Shown: piece after piece, positions 11,294 to 18,797 of the stretch | Position numbering within the stretch: position 1 is the first letter of the stretch | How the letters are laid out: the number at the start of each line of letters is the position of its first letter | Origin: an uncultured Hormoscilla sp. | GTDB lineage: Bacteria; Cyanobacteriota; Cyanobacteriia; Cyanobacteriales; Desertifilaceae | Length of the DNA: 64,000 bases | Direction of reading: 5' to 3' | Assembly: GCA_963921275.4 (NCBI GenBank) | Contig: OZ001293.3 | Coordinates: 3,264,001 to 3,328,000 of the forward strand | Program-made: the position numbers and the translations under genes | The notes under the pieces: model-generated | What the model was told of the DNA's origin: nothing | Seen by the model: only the letters and a program-made list of their open reading frames with translations | Databases searched by the model: none

Positions 11294-12454
11294 ATGAAAA
11301 ATCTGGAAAATTTAACTATCCATAGTTTCCGGGGGCTGCCAGAGATCTGCTTGGAGTCCTTGGGGCAAATAAACCTGTTTGTCGGAGTCAACAACTCCGG
11401 CAAAACCAGCGTGTTAGAGGCGATATCAACATACTGTCGCCCATTAGACCCGCTAGCATGGCTAAATACGGCATGGCGTCGAGAGATCAAGTCATCTCGC
11501 AAACCCCAGTTGGAAGCCCTCAAGTGGCTGTTTCCCCAGAATGGTACAGTCGGGGAGTTTTATCAGGGAGAAACCCATATCTCTGGGGATGGCAAATTTA
11601 CGGTGAGGGAGTCCCGATCGATCTATCAAGAGTTTGAAGAAATTTGGGCAGATCCCGATCGCAGCATTGGTCGGGCGTTCCCATCAGCGGGGAATTTAGC
11701 TTACGACATCGAGGAGGTAAATTTAGGTCCTGCTACTGTTGTGCGGGGTGCAGAAGTACAGTTGAAAGCTACAATAGAGAAAGAAGAAAAGTTGCCCGAT
11801 CTGGAAATATCGGAAAGCTTCGTAATATGGGAGAATAGGAGTTTCGTCAAGCGGCGCCAACCTGGGACTGGGGAAGGAAAATCAGAGATTATGCTGTCGG
11901 TTGATGCGGTGACACCATTTGCTCACGCGATCGAACAGTTACAAGTAGAATTGCTATCAGAAGCGACTTTAGCGGGATTCAAGCCAGAAGTCATCAAATT
12001 ACTCCAGGTAATGGATAAAGAAATCGATGACTTACAAATATTATCGCATCGCGGGGATAGTCCGAGGCTCTATGTTAGCCACAAACAGACAGGAATGGGG
12101 CCATTAAGTGCTTGCGGAGAGGGAGTTTGTCGTCTGCTGTCCATCGCCTTAACTTTGGCCAAAGTGCGAGGAGGAGTTCTACTGATTGATGATTTAGAAA
12201 CTGCGATTCATACTGAAGTGCTCAAACCCTCATTTTCCTGGCTGGTTCAATGGTGTCAGCAGATGGACGTGCAGCTATTTGCAACAACTCACAGCTTGGA
12301 AACCGTTGACGAACTCTTGAGTGCTTCTAAGATAGCACCAGATTTGGTGCTATATCGATTATATCCACGGGAGTCGCGGACTAAATGGCTGAGAATAGAT
12401 CGCGATCGACTGCAACGAGTGCGGCAAGATTTGGGTATGGAGGTGCGCTGGTGA
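11294..12454 (+). CDS. ABC-type (AAA_15/AAA_21-like) ATPase, unit 2
   Basis: Walker A GVNNSGKT, signature-like LSACGEG, Walker B LLIDDLE, H-loop ATTHS. 386 aa from ATG 11294. Confidence 0.88.
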   Translation: MKNLENLTIHSFRGLPEICLESLGQINLFVGVNNSGKTSVLEAISTYCRPLDPLAWLNTAWRREIKSSRKPQLEALKWLFPQNGTVGEFYQGETHISGDGKFTVRESRSIYQEFEEIWADPDRSIGRAFPSAGNLAYDIEEVNLGPATVVRGAEVQLKATIEKEEKLPDLEISESFVIWENRSFVKRRQPGTGEGKSEIMLSVDAVTPFAHAIEQLQVELLSEATLAGFKPEVIKLLQVMDKEIDDLQILSHRGDSPRLYVSHKQTGMGPLSACGEGVCRLLSIALTLAKVRGGVLLIDDLETAIHTEVLKPSFSWLVQWCQQMDVQLFATTHSLETVDELLSASKIAPDLVLYRLYPRESRTKWLRIDRDRLQRVRQDLGMEVRW

Positions 12455-13227
12455 GGTATGCTATCATTGGGGTTGAGGGACCGCAAGACCAAGCATTTGT
12501 TGGCAAGGTACTCAAGCAGCTACTGGGTTTCAAAGATTTTAGAAAGGAGTTGGGAGGATTAGAGGATAATTTGGACAAGTTCTGGCGCAAGTTTAAACCA
12601 AATTATCCCAAAGACGGAAATTTGTACAAGCGTCTGGATATGCCATCGATCCTGTATAATGATTCAGTTTCGGTGGCCATATATCCAGGAGAGGGGAGTA
12701 ACTTAGTGAATAGTTTGGATGAGTTTATCCGAAATAATCCTCCTTATCAAGAAGAACTGATGGCATTTGGGATTGTAGCAGATGCCGATCGGAAAGCGCC
12801 AGATGCGGTTGTGAAACCCTACTGTAATTGCTTTCGCAGCTATTTCCCTAATTTTCCTGACCTTGCTGGGGTGGTCGATACCAGCGTTCCTCGCACGGGA
12901 ATATACGTGTTCCCCGATAATGTTAACCCGGGAGTGTTGGATACTTTGCTATGTCTTTGTGGAGAAGTTGCTTATCCCGAGTACCTGGAAAGGGCCCAAG
13001 AGTATCTTGACAAGTTCTCGCCAGAGGAGAGAAAATCTCTGAAGTGGAAACCGTTCGATCGGGAAAAGGCCCTAGTTGCTACCGTGGTCAGCGTGCTGAA
13101 ACCGGGGAAAACCAATACCGTGAGTATAGCAGATAATAATTGGGTGAGTGGGCAAACGGAAACTGAGGTGACGGCGCTAGCTAATTTCAGAGATTTTTTG
13201 AGGGAACTTGTGAGTGTGGATGGATGA
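12451..13227 (+). CDS. TOPRIM-motif protein (DUF3226-like), unit 2
   Basis: GTGA overlap with the ATPase stop. Motifs IIGVEGPQD and GIVADAD. 258 aa. Confidence 0.75.
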   Translation: MRYAIIGVEGPQDQAFVGKVLKQLLGFKDFRKELGGLEDNLDKFWRKFKPNYPKDGNLYKRLDMPSILYNDSVSVAIYPGEGSNLVNSLDEFIRNNPPYQEELMAFGIVADADRKAPDAVVKPYCNCFRSYFPNFPDLAGVVDTSVPRTGIYVFPDNVNPGVLDTLLCLCGEVAYPEYLERAQEYLDKFSPEERKSLKWKPFDREKALVATVVSVLKPGKTNTVSIADNNWVSGQTETEVTALANFRDFLRELVSVDG

Positions 13228-13375
13228 AAAAGGATAAACTAAAAGCTGTGGAATTGTTTGCTGGTATTGGCGGGTTTCGCCTATGGCATCTGCTAACATA
13301 GAATGGGCGAATGATATCAGGACACTTTGCTGTCAAGTTGATGAAAGTAATTTTGGGAAAGGGGCGATCGTCTTA
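13224..13375 (+). pseudogene. 5' fragment of C5 methyltransferase (duplication junction)
   Basis: MKKDKLKAVELFAGIGGFRL copy of 16133-16291, ending at GGCGATCGTCTTA. Confidence 0.85.
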
Positions 13376-17284: not shown

Positions 17285-17302
17285 AATAGAGAGTCGCAGA
17301 AG

Positions 17303-18797
17303 ATGCAAGTACTGACGCTACATTTACTAAAGACTGAAGCAGGAAATTTTGTGGTGCAATTGAGCGATAGACAGATTGCAGAGTTGTATGGTATAACGGA
17401 TGGCAAGGCAGTAGGAACATACGTTGAACAAGCATTCAAGCGATATCTGACAGCCAAGTATTCATATACGCCAGGGAGTGCTGCTAGCGGTATTGATTTT
17501 CCCGAGTTAGAAGTTGACATTAAGGTAACATCGATCAAACAACCTCAGTCATCTTGTCCATTTCGGGATGCGAGTCAGAAAGTTTATGGACTGGGTTATC
17601 ATTTGATTGTGTTCGCTTATGAGAAGATCGACAATCATGAATCACGTGCTGCTGTTCTGAATTTTCAATATGCTATTTTTGTGGATCGGGAACGCACAGG
17701 AGACTATCAAACGACCTATGGGTTGAGAGAAATCATGCACCGTAATGGTAACAAAGATGATGTGGTTGCATTTCTAGAAGAGCGTAGTGCGATTCGTTCT
17801 AGTCTAACGTGGGCAACTACGGAACGCTAGGCCAGGTCCAAACTGGTAACTCTGGTATTCATGGGGGTTAGATTCCCTCTCTCCAAGTGTGGGAGTAACA
17901 CCGGTCCTTAGTGCTGCTGAGTCACATCACGGTGGTGCGGAGCAAGGACTTAAATGTAGGATAGCTAGCAGCCTAAGCTAGTGACGCCGCTAGGAAAGAT
18001 GCTAATGGCTAGAACAAGCGAACCTGTGTACGCCTCGTTATCTAGAACCAGCGAAATAAGGCTTAAAGCGCTGGCCCAAAAGGGAAATGGTAGTTTGTGC
18101 TGGTTCTTGCACTTGGCCAGTATCGCACTCTAAGAACTCCCGGGGTATAGCAGGGGCCTAAAAGCATCGTGAAATGATACTAGGGAACGAAGTAACTTCT
18201 CGTGTGCTGTCTAGATTGGACAAGTTAGATGTAAAGCGCAAGCCGCGAGGGGAGAGATAGCCCGAGAAGCTAATGCCTAGGGTAACGCCTATGGATATGA
18301 TGGGGTGTTCCTCATCCAGCTGACGCGGGTTGGTTAAAGTAGGAAATCTTGGGTAAGAGTATCTCTAAGACGCCGGAGGCCTCTCGAAGGTTGGATGACT
18401 GGTAAAACAGACTTGGAAATGGTAATACTAAAGGTTATCTGGCAGCGCCGCTTACCAACCAGGAAAGGAGTGAAATCGCATGAGATGAGGGACAAGTGGA
18501 GCAATCCGTAGTAATCCTAGTAGTGACAATGCCCTACTTGCCAGTAGCCGGATGCGGTGAAAGTCGCACGTCCGGTTCCGAATGGGAGGGTTAGGGGGTG
18601 ACCCCTAGCTCGACCCCGACTACCTACCTCTAGACGAGATTGGACGTGAGGCCCTGGCCTCACGCATAATGCTCCAACCTCCGGAACAAGGTTACATCAC
18701 CATTTCTAATGCGCTGCAATGGAGGTTACAATACCGAAGGATTATAGAACTGGCGATCGCAGGGACAACCCCAGGGGTGGAGAATATTCACCGGTAG
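17303..18797 (+). CDS. Type II restriction endonuclease (NspV-like by recollection), split by a sense group II intron; exons 17303-17786 and 18622-18797
   Basis: Spliced ORF is 660 nt / 219 aa (...FLEERNLPLDEIGREAL...SNALQWRLQY...). GIDFPELEVDIK is a PD-(D/E)XK-type motif. Starts 18 bp after the MTase. Confidence 0.8.
17787..18621 (+). mobile_element. ORF-less group II intron B (835 nt)
   Basis: Starts GTGCGATTCG. Domain V AGCCGGATGCGGTGAAAGTCGCACGTCCGGTT; ends CTCGACCCCGACT. Confidence 0.92.

Follow-up and report, generated by a model that had tools for sequence, protein, structure and literature searches.

Decaying tandem copies of a DUF3226 ATPase-Toprim gene pair beside a type II restriction-modification pair in a Hormoscilla genome

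A 64,000-nucleotide stretch of an uncultured Hormoscilla sp. genome (GCA_963921275.4, contig OZ001293.3, positions 3,264,001 to 3,328,000; hereafter the window) carries, behind an aspS-like gene and 5' of a type II restriction-modification (R-M) pair, three tandem copies of a gene pair encoding an ATP-binding cassette (ABC) ATPase and a Toprim-like protein of family DUF3226, and most of these copies are broken. Judged by its sequence, the pair is a catalogued but untested candidate phage-defence family, PDC-M38, and the locus a damaged member of it. We consider it probable that a PDC-M38/DUF3226 cassette, likely a free-standing abortive module of the PARIS/AbiL kind, was triplicated in tandem here and is decaying, and that the R-M pair is likely a neighbour acquired within the genus. 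A first-pass annotation had proposed one chain of four coupled genes, in which an uncharacterised ATPase-nuclease pair guards the R-M system expressed with it.

The repeating unit is an ATPase gene, a DUF3226 gene and the start of a methylase, present three times and followed by a methylase and a restriction endonuclease (REase), rather than one four-gene operon (Table 1). The open reading frame (ORF) that anchors the locus, which we take to be aspS from its sequence motifs, stops 3 nt 5' of copy 0, where a frameshifted ATPase 5' stub with a large internal deletion is followed by the ATPase 3' end and then by a DUF3226 start fused to a methylase 5' stub. In copy 1 the ATPase and DUF3226 frames overlap at GTGA, as first annotated, and the DUF3226 frame overlaps a methylase frame through ATGA at 13224, but that methylase is only the frameshifted stub. 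The intact methylase lies 2.9 kb beyond copy 1, behind a second ATPase/DUF3226 copy that is 88.7% identical to the first in DNA over 1.48 kb; its start is overlapped for 11 nt by the end of the copy 2 DUF3226 gene, and this broken copy is the only one that overlaps it. The coupling of copy 1 to a working methylase does not hold, and a single intact four-gene operon is ruled out by the introns, the frameshifted stub, an in-frame TAA and a Walker B change. Assembly error as the origin of the breaks is ruled out by matching contigs of three public runs (X2-X4, possibly the window's own source): no letter differs in the Walker B stretch (11554-12235) or in the TAA stretch (15675-15960), and because these contigs match letter for letter, neither change is an assembly error.

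The downstream half of the first-pass gene order was read correctly: a C5 methylase adjoins a type II REase across a gap of 18 bp, all genes lying on the plus strand, as in a type II R-M system. The REase matches PADLOC REase_II PDLC03454 (E 3.9e-66) and NCBIfam NF052465, and its uninterrupted 219-aa orthologues in two genus relatives (G402 and G403) have the same length as the frame obtained here by removing intron B; a search of solved structures with the REase found none. GTCGAC is the most avoided palindrome, a measure that cannot assign the recognition site of the REase. Promoter and terminator scans gave 21 matches against 13.8 expected and 8 against 11.3 expected, respectively, and are uninformative.

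Two of the breaks are insertions of group II introns, and contigs of a further run (X5, a related strain) hold the intron-free allele at both sites, with 13528 joined to 14407 at the site of intron A; in relatives without intron B, query position 7787 is joined directly to 8623. An antisense group II intron cannot splice from its host gene's message, and intron A, being on the opposite strand, would therefore not be removed from the copy 2 ATPase message. The genome holds 140 full-length copies of intron A and 72 of intron B at 95% identity or more, together with 301 domain-V-like motifs and 53 reverse-transcriptase-like ORFs, and in the window ORF-less introns also occur at 24752-25636, 40666-41521 and 52348-53267. 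So heavy an intron load is a setting in which decay of this kind is to be expected. Both intron ends (13529 and 18621), as placed by the empty target sites and the reading frames, fall 1-2 nt past the end of the Rfam model; the introns end in …CCCCATCC and …CCCCGACT, the exon A that comes next is mostly conserved, and the 3' splice site of both looks non-canonical.

The copy 1 ATPase has the Walker A (GVNNSGKT) and H-loop (TTHS, H333) motifs credited to it at first pass, but its Walker B, which had been counted with them, reads LLIDD instead of LLIDE. In a column check, Asp-300 occupies the catalytic-Glu column, which is Glu in 74 of 74 homologues, and the signature region has E276 where 73 of the 74 have Asp and C274 where 65 have Phe. 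LLIDE is kept in copy 2 and in six readable ATPases of the genus, one frameshifted sequence being unreadable. The Glu that follows Walker B has a known role in ABC ATPases, and because Asp-300 replaces it we infer that copy 1 has lost hydrolysis. Neither copy has the full features of an active ABC ATPase, copy 1 lacking the catalytic Glu and copy 2 having it in an interrupted gene. The copy 1 protein matches PDC-M38A in PADLOC (E 9.8e-63, residues 1-385 on profile positions 1-366 of 367), the next-best match being AbiLi (E 6.3e-29, residues 5-345). Its AlphaFold2 model, with a mean pLDDT score (predicted local distance difference test) of 86.9 and structural matches to PtuA, Rad50 and SMC heads, predicts an ABC fold with a beta-rich insert at residues 91-179, made of strands and a disordered loop.

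The 258-aa partner is DUF3226, as had been suggested: PF11536 scores 97.3 bits against a curated cut-off of 27, the protein has a profile match to 2P62, and PDC-M38B matches it at E 2.4e-9 (residues 8-248 on profile positions 11-276 of 281). With A and B adjacent and both nearly full length, the locus matches PADLOC candidate PDC-M38 at the level of its two profiles, and the pair that the first pass called uncharacterised is not uncatalogued. The VEGPQD and DAD motifs seen at first pass are present in copy 1, which keeps E9, D13, D111, D113, R61 and K206; in an alignment of 127 sequences E9, G10, D111 and K206 are invariant and D13 and D113 are at least 90% conserved. The AlphaFold2 model built from these 127 sequences (pLDDT 97.3) is closest to PH0156 (2P62; Foldseek E 3.7e-7; Z 15.9, root-mean-square deviation (r.m.s.d.) 3.6, 220 residues aligned), and the Toprim regions of class 2 OLD proteins come next (Z 8.3-9.7), among them the OLD C-terminal region 6NK8 (Z 9.7, r.m.s.d. 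4.4, 173 aligned), while GajA, at Z 6.8, is in the common-fold range. The model joins this fold to the conserved Glu and DxD of Toprim/OLD-type proteins, and the 258-aa protein is predicted to be a nuclease with a Toprim fold and an acidic metal-binding motif.

The two proteins form a regular pair. The ATPase gene lies directly 5' of the DUF3226 gene in 30 of 31 cyanobacterial loci and in 64 of 67 loci of a distant clade described below, the three exceptions being near contig starts; the genes are separate here and in 74 homologous pairs, and 8000 longer candidates contained no fused form, which is weak evidence. Prediction of a 1:1 complex lends weak support to an interaction: the score was 0.42 (runs 0.04, 0.42 and 0.54) against 0.00 for the best of three controls, with contact agreement of at least 81% and partner pLDDT of at least 86. 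Of 157 solved complexes 116 reach such a mark, as do 2 of 215 mismatches, but at scores of 0.60 or below only 18 of the 157 do so, along with both of those mismatches. This prediction bears on the possibility that copy 1 is still functional in an addiction-like manner, its Walker-B-variant ATPase being kept only to check the one intact nuclease. The copy 1 DUF3226 protein keeps all invariant residues, both copy 2 genes are broken, and the nuclease gene is damaged in three of four relatives, all of which would suit such an arrangement. However, the ATPase departs at several conserved columns (F274C, D276E, E300D) and drift therefore fits, and 0.05 of the words occur in the sole RNA run that turned up; we give this explanation little chance.

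Within the genus, each of the four relatives (G401-G404) has aspS and DUF3226, between one and three copies of the ATPase, and the R-M genes or what is left of them, and a complete set of four intact genes is seen in none of the five genomes. The DUF3226 gene is frameshifted in G401, where the methylase is also deleted, and in G402; in G403, which is split across contigs, DxD reads NxD and the ATPase, on a separate contig, contains a stop; in G404 a stop interrupts the methylase and the REase is truncated. Among cyanobacterial loci outside the genus no R-M link was seen. DUF3226 was matched in 39 of 401 cyanobacterial genomes, the window's included, and 30 non-genus loci were surveyed over at most 7 kb of either flank, some contigs being short (a 31st, L009, of 1.8 kb, by BLAST only). 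The first-pass annotation had expected homologues to lie near R-M genes, and none of the 30 does. A C5 profile and an adenine-methylase motif screen gave no match in them; the motif screen missed several PglX genes that PADLOC later caught, and we do not rely on it alone. The PADLOC scan of their ORFs (150 representatives of the 200 ORFs that reach 170 aa, each searched with its first 420 aa at E 1e-20) gave no type I-III methylase or REase, and found a dnd cluster (L056), a GmrSD/BrxU-like gene (L049) and a HEC-01 pair (L045), the last tail to tail with a PDC-M38-type pair (L045:5889-9617).

A quick tree of 92 rows, from which loci with fewer than 150 aligned residues and the duplicate L126 were left out, puts the genus into a clade of 24 rows with good support, among whose 21 other members no R-M link occurs. 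The R-M pair in turn occurs without the module: the REase was matched in 57 of 400 other genomes, and in the 20 that hold both it and a DUF3226 relative the two are never adjacent, lying on different contigs in 17 and more than 1.5 Mb apart in three. Because the link is confined to one cyanobacterial genus, the module is likely not a dedicated R-M guard. The aspS orthologues 5' of the module are about 95% identical in all four relatives, and orthologues 76-82% identical stand 5' of it in nine of the 30 other loci. The simplest reading of these sequences is that the aspS-ATPase-DUF3226 arrangement is older and that the R-M pair joined it in the genus.

Several observations weigh against a free-standing abortive module. 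The R-M link, with its overlapping DUF3226 and methylase frames and its gene order, is kept in all five genus genomes, and our neighbour screens are partial. The literature searched contained no defence phenotype or anti-phage test of DUF3226 or PDC-M38 (a full-text search returned no paper naming either), and the related HEC-01 ATPase+Toprim pair was unprotective when tested, according to excerpts of 10.1101/2024.01.29.577857. Searches of 72,556 plasmid and 50,697 phage records gave no homologue, so that a highly mobile element is not favoured. One peptide pattern brought up 67 loci of many phyla, at about 30-35% identity, that form a distant clade of the family (529 representatives at 50% identity); 12 of them are embedded in a modification system or flanked by one within two genes. 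Seven of these are BREX (L110, L112, L113, L114, L122, L145, L150), with one each of DISARM (L147), type I R-M (L132), type III Mod (L107), Dnd (L149) and an N4/N6 methylase (L118), and a methylase lies within 6 kb in four more (L106, L117, L127, L128). These counts come from scans of 121 neighbours with Pfam and 189 with PADLOC (12 of these aside, they are 177 of the 179 same-strand ORFs that reach 230 aa). DNA-modification systems are clearly overrepresented in the distant clade: a rough control puts the expectation at about 0.6 such loci, from 232 Eco57I-family matches over 324.5 Mb of 44 of these genomes, and five of the 44 have PglX or DrmMI (Pfam family confirmed for two); four events would have P ~0.004. 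This contrast is inflated by kinship, in that several BREX cases are sister Planctomycetes. The other 51 of the 67 loci have no modification-system link in the scans, and embedding is therefore optional.

These embedded loci and the overlapping frames are what speak for a dedicated guard, co-expressed with the type II R-M system and causing abortive infection when a phage inhibits or evades it. We regard this as unlikely: besides the missing link in the rest of the clade and in the genomes that hold both modules, the copy whose frame runs into the intact methylase carries two breaks. Ocr, on which the first-pass analogy with PARIS leaned, is described in excerpts of PMC11464382 as inhibiting type I R-M and BREX and triggering PARIS; with type I R-M and BREX as its targets, the analogy is a poorer fit for type II. 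The guard idea is weak at the window locus and gains some support at the level of the family, where a guard role at large is plausible. More speculatively, and with considerable doubt on our part, DUF3226 ATPase-Toprim pairs could be a general guard that BREX, DISARM, Dnd and R-M operons of types I, II and III each recruited on separate occasions; the guard would sense anti-restriction proteins through a strand-rich insert unlike that of PARIS and would abort infection; the genus would then represent a fresh type II recruitment, now being dismantled by a burst of group II introns. The embedding in five kinds of DNA-modification system offers test cases for guarding of restriction by ABC-ATPase+Toprim pairs other than PARIS. 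Clean embedded orders are seen at L147:3-12061 (drmD-drmMI-ATPase-DUF3226-drmA-drmB), at L132:922-10333 (hsdM-hsdS-ATPase-DUF3226-X-hsdR) and at L110, L114 and L122 (pglX-ATPase-DUF3226-brxC), and these five are better test candidates than the window locus, which is ordinary, damaged and a poor choice for experiment. The apparent DUF3226-PglX fusion at L112 more probably results from a frameshift ahead of a TAATG stop/start overlap, BrxC and PglX being split in that assembly as well.

A role outside defence, in which the ATPase-nuclease pair repairs nucleic acid or processes RNA and is co-transcribed with aspS, would account for the position directly behind aspS here, in the four relatives and in the nine other loci, and for the plasmid and phage records without a match. 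It sits poorly with the patchy distribution among cyanobacterial genomes, the neighbours that vary outside two families, the repeated loss within the genus and the embedding in defence systems in other phyla, and we hold it to be improbable.

On the preferred reading, a free-standing abortive module, and by analogy with PARIS, AbiL and OLD, the ABC ATPase would sense infection and would bind and restrain the predicted Toprim nuclease until a phage trigger frees or activates this two-metal enzyme, which would then cut host nucleic acid (tRNA or DNA) and stop growth. Historically, the cassette may have stood behind aspS before the R-M pair arrived; unequal duplications would then have followed, with deletions, point changes and insertions of group II introns, leaving the strain with no canonical copy. 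The genus series displays stepwise decay of a defence operon in a genome overrun by group II introns. The family matters more than this locus, being widespread and having in 2P62 a solved but uncharacterised member.

Table 1. Features of the locus, in window coordinates
Feature	Position	Strand	Basis or remark
aspS-like ORF	8401..10419	+	longest ORF call, real start probably further in; locus anchor
Copy 0 pseudogene remnant	10423..11291	+	blastn self-matches, three-frame translation, tblastn
Copy 1 ABC-type ATPase, 386 aa, open frame	11294..12454	+	Pfam AAA_15/AAA_21; PADLOC PDC-M38A
Copy 1 DUF3226 Toprim-like protein, 258 aa, open frame	12451..13227	+	PF11536; PDC-M38B; fold matches
C5 methylase 5' stub, frameshift after ~20 codons	13224..13375	+	translation; 93% match to 16161-16439 region
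Copy 2 ATPase, canonical motifs (FGDG, LLIDE), split by intron A	13377..15367	+	
Intron A, ORF-less group II, antisense to copy 2 ATPase	13529..14406	-	Rfam RF00029 at 13531-13607; flanks of copies
Copy 2 DUF3226, in-frame TAA at 15910-15912	15364..16143	+	
C5 cytosine methyltransferase, intact, 383 aa	16133..17284	+	PF00145 E 4.3e-74, 250 bits; PADLOC MTase_II PDLC03272
Type II REase, 219 aa with intron B removed; exons 17303-17786 and 18622-18797	17303..18797	+	
Intron B, ORF-less group II, sense to REase	17787..18621	+	Rfam RF00029 at 18543-18620

The surroundings hold further defence-type genes. A second C5 methylase (437 aa) and, after it, two short ORFs, maybe one frameshifted REase-like gene, occupy 6129-8162 (+) directly 5' of aspS, and aspS has defence-type genes on both flanks. 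Converging on the locus is a pPIWI-RE system (19143-26858, minus strand), in which the pPIWI (19143-21815) and DinG-like helicase (21802-24642) frames are open; the intron at 24752-25636, in its upstream gene region, is a further copy of intron A. A lone CRISPR-DR28 repeat match at 30340-30363 (minus strand) is at the gathering score. Elsewhere in the genome (G000:C1) there are at least four further ATPase+DUF3226 pairs, some broken (383008-384939, 476596-478283, 874732-876458 and 5433761-5434755), the pair at 476-478 kb lying 2.7 kb from a C5 methylase of the other strand. Two stray REase 3' fragments (102474-103638 and 1750322-1751570) carry intron B at the same site, with no methylase nearby. 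A paralogue from another part of this genome is 89-93% identical to a protein labelled Hormoscilla sp., suggestive of that genus or a near relative as the host.

The likeness in architecture to OLD and PARIS proposed at first pass is upheld, and extends to AbiL. Like PARIS (AriA/AriB), the pair has its ABC ATPase and Toprim protein as separate genes, and PH0156, the closest solved relative of the window DUF3226 protein, is also the top HHpred match of a lactococcal AriB in excerpts of PMC11381338. AriA, however, is a 55-kDa protein whose helical inserts build a hexamer (excerpts of PMC11464382), whereas the window ATPase has 386 residues and a strand-rich insert, and AriA profiles match it over short motif stretches only; AriB is DUF4435, whereas the window partner matches only DUF3226 in Pfam at E 0.1, and the AriB models in PADLOC give no match at E 0.01. 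Membership of PARIS is rejected on these two grounds, the partner not being DUF4435 and the ATPase being without helical hexamer inserts; AriA and AriB are not among the matches listed by the fold searches, an absence that excludes nothing. AbiLi is the best experimentally studied relative of the window ATPase, but AbiLii, a predicted OLD-like Toprim protein (excerpts of PMC13064643), has no model matching the 258-aa protein at E 0.01, and AbiL membership is likewise rejected. The Toprim regions of OLD and GajA are the best structural matches after PH0156, yet both are single fused proteins where the window has two genes, and no GajB helicase is present at the locus, which excludes OLD classes 1 and 2 and Gabija.

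ABC-ATPase+Toprim backup modules in modification systems are already published: excerpts of PMC12839542, in whose main text DUF3226 is not named, describe OLD-ABC+TOPRIM dyads as backup effectors in BREX, and share with the first-pass annotation the idea of ATPase-nuclease dyads as an anti-restriction backup. The closest comparison is with the PDC set itself, which was drawn from cassettes found inside BREX, DISARM and type I R-M (Payne et al., 10.1101/2024.01.29.577857, main-text excerpts, where the name PDC-M38 is absent). Our survey of the distant loci reproduces this embedding in modification systems, and the window locus differs from the PDC-M38 set in being triplicated and decayed and in having a type II R-M pair as its neighbour.

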